Positions 1,429 to 20,898 of a DNA stretch of 43,697 nucleotides are shown here, piece by piece (positions within the stretch are counted from its first letter, which is position 1; each line of letters begins with the position of its first letter). Source of the stretch: a virus; IMG/VR virus record IMGVR_UViG_3300012961_000002, positions 1 to 43,697 of that record. One strand, written 5' to 3'. A program made the translations under genes and the position numbers. The notes under the pieces are model-generated. The model had not been told where the DNA came from. It saw only the letters and a list, made by a program, of their open reading frames with translations, and made no database searches.

Positions 1429-3984
1429 ATGGCAATCGTAGGTGTAGCTTCTGTCCGTATCAAGCCGGACCTGACCGAGTTCCGCAAGGAACTTAACGCG
1501 GGACTCAAGGCCATCAAGGCTGAGGTCTCCGTAAATTTGAAGCTTGACACCACGAAGGCCAAGGAAACCCTGGACCGGTTCAAGGCCGCGGTGGACGGCA
1601 AGGATCTAAACGCCAACCTTGATTTGAACACGACCAAGGCGCGCGTTTCGGTGGCGAAGCTCAAGGCGGAACTCGACTTTAAGAGCGTCTTCGCGTCGCT
1701 TAACAAGGGTCTGAGTTCCGCTACTTCGATCATGCTGAACCTCGCCAAGGCGGGCGCCGCTTTCGCGGTTACTCAGTCCGCGGTTTCTACGCTTGGTCCC
1801 ACGCTAGTTAGTGCCGCGGGTGCGGCAGCCTTGATTCCTGCCGCACTGATCGGTGCCGTGGGAATTATGGCTGCCCTCAAGCTCGGAGCCGATGGGGCAA
1901 AGAAGGCGTTCGAGGGTTTGACCCCGACGCTGGACAAGCTCAAGTCTCAGGTTTCGCAGTCCCTTCAGTCCGGCCTAACGCCGGGTGTGAACTCTTTGAA
2001 GGCGGCACTTCCAGGGCTTCGTGTCGGTCTTCAGTCGATCGCTATGGCTGCGGGTCAGGCATTCTCTCGTGTGGCCGCGGTACTTAACCAGCCCGGGAAT
2101 ACCGGCAAGGTAAACGGCATCTTCGTTCAGATGTCCATCGTCATTCAGAACGTGGGCAAGGCCCTAGCTTCGGTTCTTCAGGCGTTCATCAACATTGGCG
2201 CTATCGGTGCTCCGATCCTGGCTCAGCTGACCTCCGGAATCGGAGCCGCAGCCCAGAAGTTCGCGGCTTGGACCTCGTCGGCACAGGGAGCCCAGACGAT
2301 CCGTGACACGATCACGGTCGCTATCCAGGCATTCAAGACACTAGGCCAGATCATCGGGCAGGTGGTGGGTATCGCCACGAACCTGTTCACGGGACTCAGT
2401 TCCGGGGCGGGTGGCCTGGCCGGTACATTCCTTCCCGCGCTCAAGTCGATTAACCAGGCTCTCGGATCCGAGGGCATGCAGAAGGCCCTAGGCGGCATCG
2501 GTAACGCCCTGGCGACCGTAGGACAGGCCGTCGGCCAGACGCTGGGTTCGGTACTACAGACCGTGCTCCCGCTGCTGTCACAGGCCCTCCAGGCCGCTGC
2601 TCCGGGTGTTACTGCCCTGGTTAAGGGGTTCGGGGAGCTTGTCAAGGGAATCGCTCCGGCTCTTCCGGCCGTAGGTCAGCTAGCCGCAGTTCTTGGGGCA
2701 GGTCTTGGGCAGGTGGCTACAGCCCTGGGCCCGGTCCTCGGACAGCTAGCCTCGGTCCTGGCCGGTACCCTGGCTGAGGCTATTCCGCCCCTGGTCCCGG
2801 TTATCGTCACCTTGGTTCAGGCGATGGGCCAGATCCTGTCAGCGGTTGCGCCGCTGATCGGACCTCTGGTCCAGCTTGCAGCCGCGGCACTACAGCCGGT
2901 CCTGGCCGTGATCACGGCTTTGATTCCTCCGTTCGTGACTCTGGCTAATTCGGTTCTGGCCGCTCTTAAGCCCTTGATTCCGCCGCTGTCACAGGCGTTC
3001 GCTTCTCTGGGCCAGGCCCTCGGGCCTCTGGCCGGAGCGCTAGGAAATGCGATTGTGCAGATCTTCCAGGCGCTTCTACCGATCGTCGGGCCTTTGGTCG
3101 AAGTCGTTGTCTCCCTGGTTCAGGCTTTCATCCCGCTGATCCCGGTGATTACCTCCATCATTAATGTGGCGACACCAATCATTGCTCTGGTGGCTCAGAT
3201 CGCCGCTGCGATGATTAACCTACAGCTAAAGGCTCTTAAGCCCCTGATCGACGTTTTCGGTTTGGGCGCGGAGCTTATCGGCGCGTCGATGTCCTCGATC
3301 AATAACATTATCGCCACGGTCGTAGGCGCGGTTACCGGGCTGTTTTCGGGTCTTGTGTCCCGTATCTCCGGGGCGTGGTCTTCGATCTCGTCCACTGTGT
3401 CGAACGCGGTTAACAACGTTCGAAGCGCGATTGTGTCCAGGTTCGAAGAGGCAGTCTCGTTCGTCGGCTCGATCCCGGGCCGAATCCTCGGGGCTCTTGG
3501 AGACTTTGGATTGATGCTGTTCCGCGCGGGCAGTTCGATTATCCAGGGACTGATCGACGGTATTAAGTCCAAGATCAGCGCTGTCACAGGCGCAATCGGA
3601 GGCGTGCTCTCCGCGGCTCGCAATCTGCTTCCGTTCTCGCCCGCTAAGGAAGGGCCTTTCTCCGGAAAGGGCTGGACTCTGTATTCGGGCCGATCGATCT
3701 CTGAGGCTCTGGCCCAGGGTATCAAGGAGCGCGGAGGCCTGGCTGTGACCGCCATGGAAAACACCATGGCAGCAGTTCAGGGCGTGACGGCTGATCCTCA
3801 GTTCGGAACCTCGGTTAATGCCGCGGTCACGAACTCGGTCGACGCTGCCGCGTCGTTCACAGGAGCCCCGGTTACGGTTGTTGTCCAGGGCGATGCTGAT
3901 GGACTGGCCCAGTTTGTAACGGCCCATGTCGAAGAGAACAACCGAGACACTCGACGTTTCGTTAAGGCACGGAAGGGGGCCTAA
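1429..3984 (+). CDS. tape measure protein
   Basis: 851-aa ORF directly after the chaperone pair. It is extremely Ala/Gly/Leu-rich with repetitive helical segments, and its size fits a long non-contractile tail. Confidence 0.85.
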   Translation: MAIVGVASVRIKPDLTEFRKELNAGLKAIKAEVSVNLKLDTTKAKETLDRFKAAVDGKDLNANLDLNTTKARVSVAKLKAELDFKSVFASLNKGLSSATSIMLNLAKAGAAFAVTQSAVSTLGPTLVSAAGAAALIPAALIGAVGIMAALKLGADGAKKAFEGLTPTLDKLKSQVSQSLQSGLTPGVNSLKAALPGLRVGLQSIAMAAGQAFSRVAAVLNQPGNTGKVNGIFVQMSIVIQNVGKALASVLQAFINIGAIGAPILAQLTSGIGAAAQKFAAWTSSAQGAQTIRDTITVAIQAFKTLGQIIGQVVGIATNLFTGLSSGAGGLAGTFLPALKSINQALGSEGMQKALGGIGNALATVGQAVGQTLGSVLQTVLPLLSQALQAAAPGVTALVKGFGELVKGIAPALPAVGQLAAVLGAGLGQVATALGPVLGQLASVLAGTLAEAIPPLVPVIVTLVQAMGQILSAVAPLIGPLVQLAAAALQPVLAVITALIPPFVTLANSVLAALKPLIPPLSQAFASLGQALGPLAGALGNAIVQIFQALLPIVGPLVEVVVSLVQAFIPLIPVITSIINVATPIIALVAQIAAAMINLQLKALKPLIDVFGLGAELIGASMSSINNIIATVVGAVTGLFSGLVSRISGAWSSISSTVSNAVNNVRSAIVSRFEEAVSFVGSIPGRILGALGDFGLMLFRAGSSIIQGLIDGIKSKISAVTGAIGGVLSAARNLLPFSPAKEGPFSGKGWTLYSGRSISEALAQGIKERGGLAVTAMENTMAAVQGVTADPQFGTSVNAAVTNSVDAAASFTGAPVTVVVQGDADGLAQFVTAHVEENNRDTRRFVKARKGA

Positions 3985-15795: not shown

Positions 15796-16266
15796 TCAGA
15801 ACGGAGGAGCGTCGTCGCCCGCGGGCTCCGCGTTGAACGACTTCTCCTGAGCCGGAGGCGCGGTTCGAGCGCCGACCTTCTCGGCCGGAACCGAGTACGA
15901 GGTACGTGCGCCCGGCTGGGTCTCCTCGGTCCGGGCCTCACGAATGATGCCCTCGACGTACCCCTTCGGGTTCTTGGCCCCGCGGCGGTGGTACACCCAC
16001 GTGCCCGGTTCCGGCTTGAGCCTGAGGATCCCGTTTCGGAACACCGCCGTGGTGTACTTGAACTCGTACGTCTGGCCATCGGTGCCCGTGTACATCAGCC
16101 GGGGAATGTCGTGGAGATCCGCAGGCTGCTGCGGAAGCGTGCCCTTCGGAATCGTGATCAGCTCCACGGATTCCACCCTGCCGACGAACTCGTCACCCTC
16201 GTTCGAGAGCGAGACGAAATTGAACTCGGGGCCTTCCGGCTCCGGAGCGTTATCCCATGCACCCAT
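15796..16266 (-). CDS. single-stranded DNA-binding protein (putative)
   Basis: Acidic C-terminal tip AGDDAPPF resembles the SSB DDDIPF tail, preceded by a Pro/Ala-rich linker. Lies in the replication module. Confidence 0.55.
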   Translation of the reverse strand: MGAWDNAPEPEGPEFNFVSLSNEGDEFVGRVESVELITIPKGTLPQQPADLHDIPRLMYTGTDGQTYEFKYTTAVFRNGILRLKPEPGTWVYHRRGAKNPKGYVEGIIREARTEETQPGARTSYSVPAEKVGARTAPPAQEKSFNAEPAGDDAPPF

Positions 16267-16279
16267 GTTCTACCTCTTT

Positions 16280-16537
16280 CTACTTGACGATTGTCCACTC
16301 GGGCGCTTCCGCGCCCTTGCCCGGCGGGTTGTGGAACTCGTACGCACCCTCAGCCTTGGTGCACGAATCCCCGTTGTACGGGCCTGGGCACGCCCACGCG
16401 TACCAGAGGTTCCCGTTGTCGCTCACCTTGGACCGGAACACCTTGGTCCCGTGTCGGCAGACCGGAGCCGGTTGCGGGAACCAGTCCGGGGGTTCGGTTG
16501 CGCCCTGGGGTCGACCCGCAGGGCTTACGCTTTTCCC
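16280..16537 (-). CDS. -1 frame extension of 16525..16791 (predicted transframe product about 170 aa); alternatively an independent 49-52 aa GTG-initiated ORF
   Basis: The -1 frame is open for 83 codons from the slippery site to TAG 16280-16282. It has no ATG and only two GTGs with weak SD. It ends 14 nt before the SSB start. Confidence 0.45.
   Translation of the reverse strand, partial: GKSVSPAGRPQGATEPPDWFPQPAPVCRHGTKVFRSKVSDNGNLWYAWACPGPYNGDSCTKAEGAYEFHNPPGKGAEAPEWTIVK
16502..16524 (-). promoter_or_regulatory. candidate frameshift-stimulating hairpin
   Basis: The minus strand reads GCCCTG-C-GGG-TCGA-CCC-CAGGGC and starts 6 nt after the slippery heptamer. Confidence 0.45.
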
Positions 16538-16791
16538 GCCGAAGCCTGCTTCTTGGCCTCATCGGCCTGGACCGCACGTGCAAGGTCATTCCACCGGAGG
16601 ATCAGGGTCCAGAGCGGAGTCTGTTCCTGGGCCGTATCGACCTTGAGCAGACTACCCAGCTCGGGGATCGTGCCCCGAACCTGGACCATGCTCGCGTCGT
16701 ACGAGCCGGACGGCTTGAGGCTGAAGGTCACGAACGGGCCCTGGGGCGTGTCCTGGATCTGGCCTTCAGTAGCGAACGGGTCACTCGCCAT
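16525..16791 (-). CDS. hypothetical protein (88 aa, zero-frame product)
   Basis: ATG 16791 follows GGAAGAGGAG. The ORF ends GCG GGA AAA GCG TAA. Confidence 0.6.
   Translation of the reverse strand: MASDPFATEGQIQDTPQGPFVTFSLKPSGSYDASMVQVRGTIPELGSLLKVDTAQEQTPLWTLILRWNDLARAVQADEAKKQASAGKA
16531..16537 (-). promoter_or_regulatory. -1 slippery heptamer G GGA AAA (X XXY YYZ register)
   Basis: Read directly from the minus strand. The register was checked against the zero-frame codons GGA AAA. Confidence 0.5.
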
Positions 16792-17044
16792 CGTGGTTCT
16801 CCTCTTCCGGTTCGAGGTTCTCAATCACCATCTTGTACTGCTCACCGGTCCCTGCCTGGACCAGTAAGAGCACGGACTTGGCCGTCGTGGGCGTGGCCAC
16901 ATCCGTGACCGTGAACACGTCCGTGTCGGCATCGCCGGTCACCAAGTTCAGGCCTGTGATGATGAGTCGCCCTGCTTCCTGGACCGGCGCCAGCGTCTCG
17001 TTGAACTGCCTCTCCAGATCTTCGTTCGAGATGAACTCAGACAT
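16781..17044 (-). CDS. hypothetical acidic protein (87 aa)
   Basis: ORF track entry. The ATG follows GGGAAGGAAGG. Confidence 0.6.
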   Translation of the reverse strand: MSEFISNEDLERQFNETLAPVQEAGRLIITGLNLVTGDADTDVFTVTDVATPTTAKSVLLLVQAGTGEQYKMVIENLEPEEENHDGE

Positions 17045-17561
17045 GGACCTTCCTTCCCTGGTTGATGTTGTTCATGCAGTCGGTCAGCGCTCGAACCGCG
17101 GCCTCGATCACGTCTCGGTCAACCGGTGCCGTGTTCCCGTACACGAACTCCGCGTAGATCAGCCTGGAATACACCGGCAGAACCCGAGCCAGATAGCGGC
17201 ACCCCTCGTCGAGATCGGGCAAGTTACCGGTGATCTTGGTCCGGCTATTGATCAGAGCCCCGGACTTGAGGAGGTATCGAACCTCGCCTACAGAGTATAG
17301 GCTGTTTCCGGTGGCGAATTCGAAGTCGGCCACCTCAGAGGCCACGAGAGCCCGAGCCTGATCAACGAGGTACTTTTTGCGCCGGTACTCGGGCATCGTG
17401 TCCAGGGCCGTGAACCGTTCATCGTCGAACAGCTTGAGCGCCAGATCTCGGGCAAGGTCATCGGCCTCTGCTACTGAGGGCCAGTCAGCATGTACCCGTT
17501 CCGCTGCTTCGCGGATCTCGGGGCCATACTTGGTGAACAACCGGACCTCCTCTGTCATCAT
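17037..17561 (-). CDS. hypothetical protein (174 aa)
   Basis: ATG 17561 overlaps the upstream stop as ATGA. Confidence 0.55.
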   Translation of the reverse strand: MMTEEVRLFTKYGPEIREAAERVHADWPSVAEADDLARDLALKLFDDERFTALDTMPEYRRKKYLVDQARALVASEVADFEFATGNSLYSVGEVRYLLKSGALINSRTKITGNLPDLDEGCRYLARVLPVYSRLIYAEFVYGNTAPVDRDVIEAAVRALTDCMNNINQGRKVHV

Positions 17562-17767
17562 TCTTCCAGCCGTTCCCACTCGGGGTAGCAGACCTCTACG
17601 TAGCCTCCGGGCCCCCGGGACCGCTTCGCGGCTCCCACCGTGGAGTACGGGCCCGCGTACCGGGTCTCCCAATGGAGCTTACCTTCTCGGTCCGTCCAAC
17701 GATACTCGGTTACGGCCCGGTACATCGGGTCATCGCCCTTAACATAGGCTCGGGTTGCGCTGCTCAT
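17558..17767 (-). CDS. hypothetical protein (69 aa)
   Basis: ORF track entry, translationally coupled to its neighbours. Confidence 0.55.
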   Translation of the reverse strand: MSSATRAYVKGDDPMYRAVTEYRWTDREGKLHWETRYAGPYSTVGAAKRSRGPGGYVEVCYPEWERLEE

Positions 17768-19598: not shown

Positions 19599-20006
19599 TC
19601 AGTTGCTCGTGCTGAGTTCGAAGTTCGGGATGATCGTCTCCGGGCGGAAGATGATCCGGGGCCGGAACATGTCGACCTTGACGCCGTTGAGCTGGGTCGA
19701 AACGTACGTGACGTTGTCGCTCAGGCCCAGGGTCGTGCGCTCAATGGTCCCGGCCTTGTCCACCTTGCAGATCACGTCCAGCTTTCGGCCATCGTTCTCG
19801 ATCGAGCAGAACCCCTCGACGCTGAACAGAACCTTGTCCGTGATCCCGTTGATGCCGACGATCCGGCGCGGGACCTCGAAGTTCTCGGCCGCCTTCGACA
19901 GGTTCTCGTTGGCCTGGTCCGCCGCCGAGGTACACGCGCTGACCGTGGTACCGACGAACAGAGCAGCCCCGATCAGAGCCACCAGGTGTGCGGGTTTGAA
20001 ACTCAT
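19599..20006 (-). CDS. lipoprotein (signal peptide with lipobox)
   Basis: N-terminus MSFKPAHLVALIGAALFVGTTVSAC carries a lipobox-like VSA-C. Confidence 0.6.
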   Translation of the reverse strand: MSFKPAHLVALIGAALFVGTTVSACTSAADQANENLSKAAENFEVPRRIVGINGITDKVLFSVEGFCSIENDGRKLDVICKVDKAGTIERTTLGLSDNVTYVSTQLNGVKVDMFRPRIIFRPETIIPNFELSTSN

Positions 20007-20242
20007 GCCGGGATCTCCGTTTCCTGGACTTCGGTGATGACACAGCCGTCATGGCTGTAACACTTGATGAGATCTTGCTCATCCTTGTACTGGGTGATCG
20101 GGTGCGGCCCGGTCATGTTCAGCCACTGGCCATCGTGGGTCCGACCGAAGATCTGCCCTTCCGAATCAACCTTGAAGTAGATCGGACGACCTCCGAAAAG
20201 GTCCGTGAATTCGTCGGTTGACTTGTAGAATTTGTCACTCAC
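20003..20242 (-). CDS. hypothetical protein (79 aa)
   Basis: ORF track entry, coupled to its neighbours. Confidence 0.55.
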   Translation of the reverse strand: MSDKFYKSTDEFTDLFGGRPIYFKVDSEGQIFGRTHDGQWLNMTGPHPITQYKDEQDLIKCYSHDGCVITEVQETEIPA

Positions 20243-20898
20243 TTCGACTTTCCCATCCTTTCCAGGATTTTATCTACGCCGTACTGATGTACGGTCGAGT
20301 TCACATCTTCGCCACGGTCCATCGGGATGATCCTCGTGTTCGGAATCTTACCGGCCAGAAACTCGCCGAACTCCGTGCCCGCGGTGTCGCCATCGCAGAG
20401 CGCGTACACGGTCTCGTACCCCATGAAAATCTCCGTGAAGTGATCTTTCCACGAGGTCACTCCGGGGGCACCTACGCACGGGATCCCGTACACGCTCGCG
20501 GTCAGGGCATCGATCTCGCCTTCGGCAATCGAGATCTCGTCATCGTTCTTGATCGCGTCCAGCGTGTTGTAGAGCCGATGCTTGGTGCCTGCTGCGTTCA
20601 GGTACTTCTCGTCGTCCCTGAAGCACTGGACCCCGGGGATGACCCGGTACTTGATCCCGATCACGGACCAGTTTCCCTCTACCGACTTCCGGATGTACGG
20701 GATCGCGAGTCGGCCCCGGAACATCTCATGCCCGACCTGGGGCTCACTCACGAAGCCAAGGCGGAAGTTCTCGATCAGGTCCAGGGGCAGTCCCCGATCC
20801 TCCTCCAAATACCGGGCGGCTACGCTTCCGGGGAGCGCGGCGTGGTACTTGGTCACCGCTTGCTGAAGCGAGGTCTTCAGCGTAGCGGACAGCTTCAC
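20239..20898 (-). CDS. DNA primase, catalytic/TOPRIM part
   Basis: TOPRIM motifs IAEGEIDALT and LCDGDTAG. The N-terminal segment YLEEDRGLPLDLIENFRLGF is typical of DnaG. GTG 20898 lies 4 nt after AAGGTGGGG. Confidence 0.75.
   Translation of the reverse strand: MKLSATLKTSLQQAVTKYHAALPGSVAARYLEEDRGLPLDLIENFRLGFVSEPQVGHEMFRGRLAIPYIRKSVEGNWSVIGIKYRVIPGVQCFRDDEKYLNAAGTKHRLYNTLDAIKNDDEISIAEGEIDALTASVYGIPCVGAPGVTSWKDHFTEIFMGYETVYALCDGDTAGTEFGEFLAGKIPNTRIIPMDRGEDVNSTVHQYGVDKILERMGKSK

Follow-up and report, generated by a model that had tools for sequence, protein, structure and literature searches.

This locus raises the question of whether a phage gene that is laid out as two abutting reading frames is read as one gene. 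The stretch analysed, hereafter the window, is the whole 43,697-nucleotide (nt) sequence of IMG/VR virus record IMGVR_UViG_3300012961_000002. On its minus strand, an open reading frame (ORF) of 88 amino acids (aa) ends two codons past a slippery heptamer, G GGA AAA, and the -1 frame beyond it is open for 83 codons and contains a predicted zinc ribbon. The gene resembles gp49 of mycobacteriophage L5, and we refer to it as gp49-like. Comparison with its relatives leads us to conclude, with a probability of roughly 0.85, that it makes two isoforms by programmed -1 ribosomal frameshifting at the heptamer.

Organization of the gp49-like gene

The zero-frame ORF (16525..16791, on the minus strand, as are all features of the gene) runs from an ATG at 16791 to a TAA at 16525, and its 3' end reads GCG GGA AAA GCG TAA. 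The heptamer G GGA AAA (16531..16537), a candidate site for tandem -1 tRNA slippage, stands in the X XXY YYZ register with GGA and AAA as zero-frame codons. It is followed by a 6-nt spacer, GCG UAA (16525..16530), which includes the zero-frame stop (16527..16525), and then by a 23-nt GC-rich hairpin, GCCCUG-C-GGG-UCGA-CCC-CAGGGC (16502..16524), a candidate frameshift stimulator. The -1 frame continuation (16280..16531) comprises 83 codons, S88 to K170, and a TAG at 16282..16280, and would supply a Pro-rich linker and a Cys-His-Cys-Cys (CHCC) zinc ribbon. The ribbon core, at about residues 112-155 of the long isoform (16328..16459), has the predicted ligands C112, H114, C135 and C144 and is possibly GRF-like. 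Upstream of the heptamer the -1 frame is blocked by a TGA (16561..16559), and the only canonical start codons in that frame are GTG 16441 and GTG 16426, both of which fall 3' of the codons for the first two zinc ligands, C112 and H114.

This arrangement had been described in a first-pass annotation made from the letters of the window. The 88-aa ORF, the in-register heptamer, the 6-nt spacer and the hairpin were each re-read correctly on the minus strand, as was the -1 frame, open for 83 codons to its TAG with two GTGs and no ATG. Translation also bore out the proposed products, of 88 aa and about 170 aa (170 by our count), and the junction ...QASAGK|SVSPAGRPQG; the predicted trans-frame junction peptide is AKKQASAGK-SVSPAGRPQGATE. 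The gap between the -1 frame TAG and the next ATG (16266), given there as 14 nt, is really 13 nt.

In the mechanism that we propose, most ribosomes would read GGA AAA GCG and stop at UAA, giving the 88-aa N-terminal-domain protein. A fraction would slip back by one base, the P-site tRNA-Gly being paired to GGA and the A-site tRNA-Lys to AAA; the slipped tRNAs would re-pair on GGG AAA and decoding would continue with AGC GUA AGC... for 83 further codons. The slip product of 170 aa would share the N-domain and carry in addition the Pro-rich linker and the C-terminal CHCC zinc ribbon, and the GC hairpin starting 6 nt downstream would probably aid the slip. We infer the slippage itself, its efficiency and the stimulatory role of the hairpin, and likewise that the purpose would be a fixed ratio of isoforms with and without the zinc ribbon within the replication module.

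Assignment of both frames to the gp49 family

The fused 170-aa product matched Pfam PF25690, the family of gp49 from mycobacteriophages L5 and D29, at 35.8 bits (cut-off 27), in one stretch that aligned residues 20-144 with profile positions 49-182 of 191. The C-terminal half alone reached 26.2 bits, under the cut-off, and the N-terminal half alone gave no match. PHROG 364 showed the same pattern, with 51.9 versus 34.4 bits; the label of that family, 'ribonucleoside reductase', is probably a carry-over from a neighbouring gene. L5 gp49 is itself one ORF of 179 aa and is about 24-28% identical to the window protein. When 1.8 billion representative proteins were searched exhaustively with HMMER, 36 matched, many of them junction-spanning single-ORF proteins of 122-215 aa (P0007, P0009, P0011, P0014 and P0021). 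Close relatives, 49-83% identical to the N-terminal part of the window protein, are annotated as N-terminal products of 81-96 aa (P0001, P0002, P0006 and P0008), and 'orphan' C-terminal products of 47-79 aa (P0003, P0005 and P0030) have been called from -1 frame starts in relatives. When 22 sequences were aligned, the junction lay in the variable linker between the N-domain and a C-x-H-G...C-P...C ribbon in which C112 and C135 are invariant and H114, G115 and C144 nearly so. The motif G[RK]PxGATxxPxW, just past the slip site, is common to split and single-ORF homologues. By these sequence comparisons, the 88-aa ORF and the -1 frame are to be regarded as one gene of the L5/D29 gp49 family.

The DNA polymerase encoded in the window is 62% identical to the polymerases of cluster A mycobacteriophages, so the phage, a soil actinophage, is taken to be a distant, uncultured relative of that cluster. 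A DNA similarity search against cultured phages gave no match and a TBLASTN search of 50,697 phage records with the fused protein gave none at E 1e-3, so that annotation is not transferable from them. A protein-pattern search of GTDB genomes found no relative and so pointed to no host, and a narrower locus query with the family alignment returned only four loci. Four much larger proteins, P0004 (2387 aa), P0015 (1417 aa), P0018 (1366 aa) and P0020 (880 aa), each matched the C-terminal ribbon motif (about residues 106-165 of the query) in 4-12 stretches, which places the domain also in tandem arrays of giant proteins. Three IMG/VR sequences (L036-L038) with 166-179 open-frame codons have lost the Cys ligands (…APDGYKYATGVKNGRTWHAWFPIERDG…) and have no slip site; their ribbon appears to be a version without zinc.

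Conservation of the proposed slip signal

Whether homologues keep the heptamer, the spacer, the hairpin and the open -1 frame, a question already posed in the first-pass annotation, can be answered positively from nine distinct split versions of the gene: the window, L001 (SRR30196925), L002/L004 (IMG/VR and JGI), L003, L005, L007 (ENA), L008 (SRR16915475), L009 (SRR5234510) and L016 (JGI 3300062684). They come from ten independent assemblies across projects (IMG/VR, JGI, ENA and Logan/SRA), and the relatives range from about 90% down to about 37% identity to the window. The heptamer G GGA AAA is in register in eight of the nine sequences, the difference being in L005. In all nine, the zero-frame stop lies two codons past the heptamer (GCG TAA, GCG TAG or GGG TAA), the spacer is 5-6 nt long and the zinc-ribbon ORF is in the -1 frame. 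The codon before the heptamer varies among GCG, ACG and TCG (Ala, Thr and Ser), the G at its third position being constant. GGA and AAA are invariant at their third positions, as against 26 variable third positions out of 30 in the adjacent linker; this amounts to nucleotide-level selection and rules out sequencing error. The unsplit genes of L5, L010 and L014 are without the heptamer, which thus tracks the split layout, and no slip site was found at the domain boundary in unsplit L5, P0009 or P0010.

A base missing through sequencing or assembly error from a homopolymer run of an intact gene would also produce two frames, and here the frame does change in a G3A4 run where gain of one base would restore a single ORF. 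The same layout in ten independent assemblies, with the surrounding sequences diverged, effectively refutes this explanation.

The conserved run bears also on transcriptional slippage, in which RNA polymerase would add one A in the A4 run and give the identical fused protein. An extra A in GGGAAAAG gives exactly ...GK SV..., and the A run is conserved even in L005, which has G AGA AAA. Bacterial transcriptional realignment needs runs of about 7 or more A or T, for which a run of four is far too short. Moreover, the conservation takes in the three G's and the register, and the structure stands at the distance of a ribosomal spacer, which is relevant to ribosomes and not to RNA polymerase. The reverse-polarity relatives described below, in turn, combine C CCA AAA with a very strong hairpin at a distance of 6 nt. 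We therefore rate transcriptional slippage as quite improbable.

Motifs resembling a Shine-Dalgarno sequence (AAGAAGG or AGCAGG) occur 10-18 nt upstream of the heptamer in several relatives; they belong to a conserved KK(Q/A) coding stretch, and for this reason we make no claim for them as stimulators.

Evidence for translation of the -1 frame

Among the split sequences, the 30 codons from the slip site to the first GTG of the window have 9, 8 and 26 variable columns at -1 codon positions one, two and three. The third-position bias holds for all 84 codons, with 9/8/26 and 17/16/34 variable columns. Over the first 30 codons, comparison of the window with L002 and with L005 gave 6 synonymous and 0 non-synonymous changes each. 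This pattern of substitution indicates that purifying selection acts in the -1 frame on the linker that follows the slip site.

The same observations were used to evaluate the possibility that the gene is decaying, an ancestral 1-nt deletion having left a stump of 88 aa as the only product made or the only one that functions. The distant homologues are indeed single ORFs, and the C-terminal part of L007 has lost a further 11 nt. Set against this, the -1 ORF is open, its amino acids are conserved and its changes are biased to third positions in relatives 37-70% identical, and the zinc ligands have been kept, when an untranslated remnant would have gained stops and indels. Decay seems to us very improbable.

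A translated -1 frame could also be entered by independent initiation of the C-terminal zinc-ribbon ORF, at GTG 16441 or 16426, at a non-canonical codon or by termination-reinitiation after the UAA, and the heptamer would then be incidental. Potential starts exist: the two GTGs are present in the window, gene callers have made products of 47-79 aa in relatives, an ATG precedes the first Cys in L001 and L008, and one lies upstream of the heptamer in L016. Initiation at either GTG of the window, being past C112 and H114, would yield a protein with half a zinc site. No start codon in the linker is conserved among the split sequences, and L009 has no ATG, GTG or TTG in its -1 frame up to 8 codons beyond the first Cys. 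The Met of L001 and L008 (W-M-P) falls at a position (W-M/F) whose hydrophobic character is conserved and which recurs within the unsplit proteins. Since no start is conserved, L009 is startless and the GTGs lie past two ligands, ribosomes must enter the -1 frame from upstream; in the clade of the window a -1 frame stop stands 7-13 codons upstream of the heptamer. Independent initiation leaves unexplained both the 24 codons before the first Cys, with their purifying selection in the -1 frame and their homology to the unsplit linker, and the invariance of the heptamer at synonymous sites. We judge it improbable. Programmed -1 frameshifting, the reading first put forward in the first-pass annotation, is supported by the conservation in homologues, the PF25690 match of the fused product, selection on the linker and the lack of a conserved start.

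Points that weigh against frameshifting

Several observations weigh against frameshifting at this site. The first is the frequency of the bare pattern. We scanned all open frames of at least 60 codons in the window, which is 60% GC, for in-register heptamers near frame ends; there were 13, and eight of these had -1 extensions of at least 77 codons. Some of the candidates lie in clearly non-coding frames, for example at position 323, so a heptamer with an open -1 frame is common by chance in this GC-rich window. The significance of the site accordingly comes from the comparative data and not from the window alone. The candidate at 323 (G GGU UUU) was also considered as a tail-chaperone slip site and was rejected, both of its frames being Arg-rich nonsense.

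The second concerns the hairpin. The window hairpin folds at -17.3 kcal/mol (33-nt piece; z = -2.1 against dinucleotide shuffles), and in the eight split sequences that were folded a hairpin occurs 5-6 nt past the heptamer at -14.4 to -20.4 kcal/mol (dinucleotide-shuffle z of -1.4 to -2.9); taking all split sequences together, the energies run from -14 to -21 kcal/mol. When the Pro/Gly-rich peptide (S-P-A-G-x-P-x-G-A) is recoded synonymously at random, mean folding energies are -12.6 to -17.0 kcal/mol, and the share of recodings that equal or surpass the natural fold in stability is 0.10 in the window and 0.01-0.33 among the relatives. The linkers of unsplit homologues form equally stable hairpins. 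Both stem sequence and pairing register differ among the split relatives, and strict covariation is not countable because the register shifts. The hairpin is real and correctly placed but weak as independent evidence, and we rejected it in that role since it is not above synonymous recodings and unsplit linkers fold equally well. Among the homologues the hairpin is conserved in position, with a stability no greater than that of synonymous recodings. An Rfam search of positions 16100-17000 gave nothing relevant.

The remaining points come from individual relatives. In L005 (1679-1685) the heptamer reads G AGA AAA, which changes the zero-frame Gly to Arg; the A-site slip is kept and P-site re-pairing is poorer. 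Either a naturally occurring site of low efficiency or a mistake in the metagenome contig, which is 2 kb long, may account for it. L007, a 581-nt contig at 2.5x coverage, has the 11-nt deletion, which breaks the -1 ORF; it drops the C-R-H-G codons and moves the remaining ribbon ORF into the zero frame, with heptamer, stop and hairpin intact. L007 is either an assembly artefact or a defective copy. Finally, the -1 frame ATG of L016, which a gene caller took as a start, precedes the heptamer by 11 codons.

Relatives with the reverse polarity

Two single-ORF proteins of 153 aa, P0007 (L012 and L013) and P0038 (L151 and L152), are 70% identical to each other, and each has C CCA AAA in register at the corresponding domain boundary, followed by a 6-nt spacer, GGUAGU (L012 3054-3105; L151/L152 coding sequence nt 237-290). 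The metagenome of L151 (3300048996) is also that of the split relative L003. Their hairpins fold at -30.9 or -31.3 kcal/mol; the outer stem (GCCCCGGCC/GGCCGGGGC) is conserved, and the inner stem differs in sequence yet keeps its pairing. For L012, 0.35% of synonymous recodings match the folding of the real hairpin. The -1 frame in these genes closes after two codons (PKR*), so that a -1 slip would yield an N-domain protein of 82 aa, the arrangement of dnaX.

Nucleotide alignment of the two layouts sets GAAGGCCTCGGGAAAAGCGTAG-CCCC in L016 against GAAGGCCCACCCAAAAG-GTAGTGCCCC in L012. An indel of a single base decides whether the long or the short isoform is read in the zero frame, and both layouts keep the TAG. 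In the split form, G GGA AAA GCG UAR, a slip would lead to the long form; in the unsplit form, C CCA AAA G-GU AGU, a slip would lead to the same UAG and hence to the short form. Given sites of both polarities, both isoforms seem to be selected for across the gp49-like family, as these sequences suggest. Our wider proposal is tentative, and we hold it as a possibility rather than a conclusion: the family would need both isoforms, the slip site at the boundary would have been kept with its polarity inverted by a one-base indel, and the cassette would perhaps be reusable.

Predicted structure and possible function

An AlphaFold2 model built from 29 sequences had a mean predicted local distance difference test (pLDDT) score of 81.7. 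Its N-domain combines two strands with one short helix and one long one (residues 59-84), the slip site (residues 86-87) falls just past that helix, and the C-terminal ribbon is three-stranded. Fold searches with the whole model gave no meaningful match in the PDB or BFVD.

The family profile aligned weakly with the tandem GRF zinc fingers of NEIL3 (E 0.14-0.16), with the four ligands aligned (GRF2). For a model of the C-terminal domain only (pLDDT 78), the top Foldseek matches in the PDB were ZCCHC4 (E 0.15, probability 0.87), which we take to contain a GRF finger, and the NEIL3 GRF (E 1.2). Superposition of this model on 7jl5 (NEIL3 GRF) gave a root-mean-square deviation of 2.4 A over 47 columns. 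These profile and fold matches (E 0.14-1.2) are not significant, and Pfam zf-GRF gave no match. The family resembles the GRF fingers of NEIL3, APE2 and ZCCHC4 in its three-stranded zinc ribbon and its C-x-H-G ... C-P ... C spacing, and differs from them in that the eponymous G-R-x-F is replaced by G-x-x-W-x-A-W. GRF fingers bind single-stranded DNA (ssDNA) and forks (PMC9561275). Judging from the models, the C-terminal ribbon is possibly GRF-like and ssDNA-binding, the resemblance being weak. We tentatively suggest that the long isoform would tether the N-domain to ssDNA at the fork, the short isoform being without the tether.

Genomic context and other candidate sites

The gp49-like gene sits on the minus strand between a gp53-like gene and the gene for DNA polymerase I. 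The gp53-like protein (17037..17672, minus) matched PF25684 weakly and PHROG 354, labelled 'sigma-K factor', at E 6e-21. Between the two genes lies an 87-aa ORF (16781..17044, minus) that overlaps the start of the gp49-like gene by 11 nt. The downstream gene, of 156 aa (15796..16266, minus), starts 13 nt past the -1 frame stop. It had been labelled as a single-stranded DNA-binding protein (SSB) in the first-pass annotation, a name that has no hidden Markov model or PDB support: searches of Pfam, PHROG, NCBIfam and PDB sequences gave no match to the 156-aa protein, and its one likeness to SSB lies in its C-terminal DDAPPF tail, which resembles the acidic tip. In L008, L012 and L016 as well, the gp49-like gene is followed by a gene of this kind of size, 146-147 aa. 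The order of gp53-like gene, small ORF, gp49-like gene, 147-156-aa gene and DNA polymerase I is repeated in L008; in L010 it is shortened, with the gp53-like and gp49-like genes adjacent, in that order, and three small ORFs ahead of the polymerase.

A further heptamer, G GGA AAG (20254..20248, minus), occurs four codons before the stop of a DnaG/Toprim-like ORF (20898..20239; TIGR01391, E 2e-11, below cut-off). The next gene (20242..20003) occupies the -1 frame at this point and has a GTG of its own within a GTGA overlap. The heptamer is probably a chance outcome of the 4-nt overlap, and low-level fusion could occur there.

The slip cassette was also found in other genes. An exact 17-mer, GGGAAAAGCGTARSCCC, stands in register at the end of long zero-frame ORFs (434-2241 codons, ...GKA*) in the IMG/VR contigs L018, L028 (=L033), L029, L030, L031, L032 and L034. 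In these contigs a GC hairpin follows 5-6 nt later and the -1 frame runs for 81-1151 codons, with the first start 18-105 codons downstream. Pfam domains were recognized on both sides of the 17-mer: Zeta_toxin upstream of it in L034, and ADPrib_exo_Tox or ART-PolyVal in the -1 extension in L034, L028 and L029. These domains point to giant proteins of the polyvalent type whose modules are apparently joined by the same cassette. Both frames were long in 9 of 18 IMG/VR matches to the 17-mer, compared with 11 of 111 matches in GTDB genomes. The 17-mer also lies between two long ORFs (about 310-350 codons, then 190-380 -1 codons) in metagenome-assembled genomes (MAGs) of Acidimicrobiales (L053, L069, L074, L100 and L108) and Gemmatimonadales (L066). 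These MAG contigs are cellular or prophage, and L053 and L074 encode near-identical flanking proteins with the junction ...DSGK|SVSPGGG. The combination of GGGAAAAGCGUAR with a GC hairpin may thus be a reusable module that joins ADP-ribosyltransferase/Zeta-toxin polyvalent proteins in other high-GC phage contigs.

Comparison with known frameshifting systems

The closest mechanistic parallels are the tail chaperones of lambda (G/GT) and of actinophages such as TM4 and Bush, in which a -1 slip on G GGA AAx near the end of a short ORF lets a minority of chains gain a second domain, giving a fixed ratio of short and extended forms with a shared N-domain. For TM4 and Microbacterium phage Bush, GGGAAAA itself has been reported as the site of the tail-chaperone slip (PMC4626039, PMC11749239); the L5 tail-chaperone site, which was also compared, is not of the GGGAAAA type. 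The gene described here differs in lying in a replication module, in belonging to PF25690 and in having a zinc ribbon as its added domain. We considered whether it might nonetheless be a tail assembly chaperone. Tail-chaperone families in Pfam and PHROGs gave no match to the window gene, and an ORF of 851 aa that is tape-measure-like by size and position only (1429-3984, plus strand) lies away from it. This identity is excluded by the gp53-like and DNA polymerase I neighbours and by the lack of homology.

E. coli dnaX (tau/gamma) offers a second comparison. It too is a replication-associated gene with two isoforms that share the N-terminal part, its heptamer ends in a Lys codon and a hairpin lies about 6 nt downstream. 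There is no homology between dnaX and the window gene, and no clear upstream Shine-Dalgarno-like stimulator could be established. Because the -1 frame of the window runs for 83 codons and a slip would give the long form, its polarity is opposite to that of dnaX; P0007 and P0038 have the dnaX polarity, a slip leading to an immediate stop and the short form. L5 and D29 gp49, members of the same family, share the N-domain, the low-complexity linker, the C-x-H-G...C-P...C ribbon and the neighbourhood of polymerase and gp53-like genes, whereas L5 gp49 and most other members are single ORFs without a slippery heptamer.

It had been stated in the first-pass annotation that phage frameshifting is limited to tail chaperones and capsid genes. 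The statement is too strong. In annotation practice, frames are joined nearly exclusively for tail assembly chaperones, which make up 2397 of 2476 joined genes in SEA-PHAGES genomes (PMC10885494). An out-of-frame product of genes 66/65 of phage Kampy (cluster A4, right arm), downstream of CCGAAAA, was detected by proteomics (PMC4626039). These Kampy genes are unrelated to the one described here. Frame changes also reportedly occur in T7 0.6B and 5.5-5.7, which are likewise non-structural and unrelated genes. Together with the Kampy product, the T7 cases give non-structural phage frameshifting a precedent; none of these has been shown to be conserved across a diverged family, as the site studied here is. 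The mechanism is classical, and frameshifting, which is very probable here, had not been known in this gene family; a conserved case in a replication module is new, though not unprecedented in kind.

Implications

One practical consequence is that gene callers split the gene into products of 81-96 aa and spurious products of 47-79 aa, which leaves the family wrongly annotated in metagenomes. A ribbon that is possibly GRF-like and ssDNA-binding would provide a functional lead for the L5 gp49 family, which is common in cluster A mycobacteriophages. The apparent inversion of polarity may serve as a natural experiment, in which the ratio of isoforms, and not either product, would be what selection maintains. 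If our interpretation is correct, a conserved recoding event would be added to the phage DNA-replication module.

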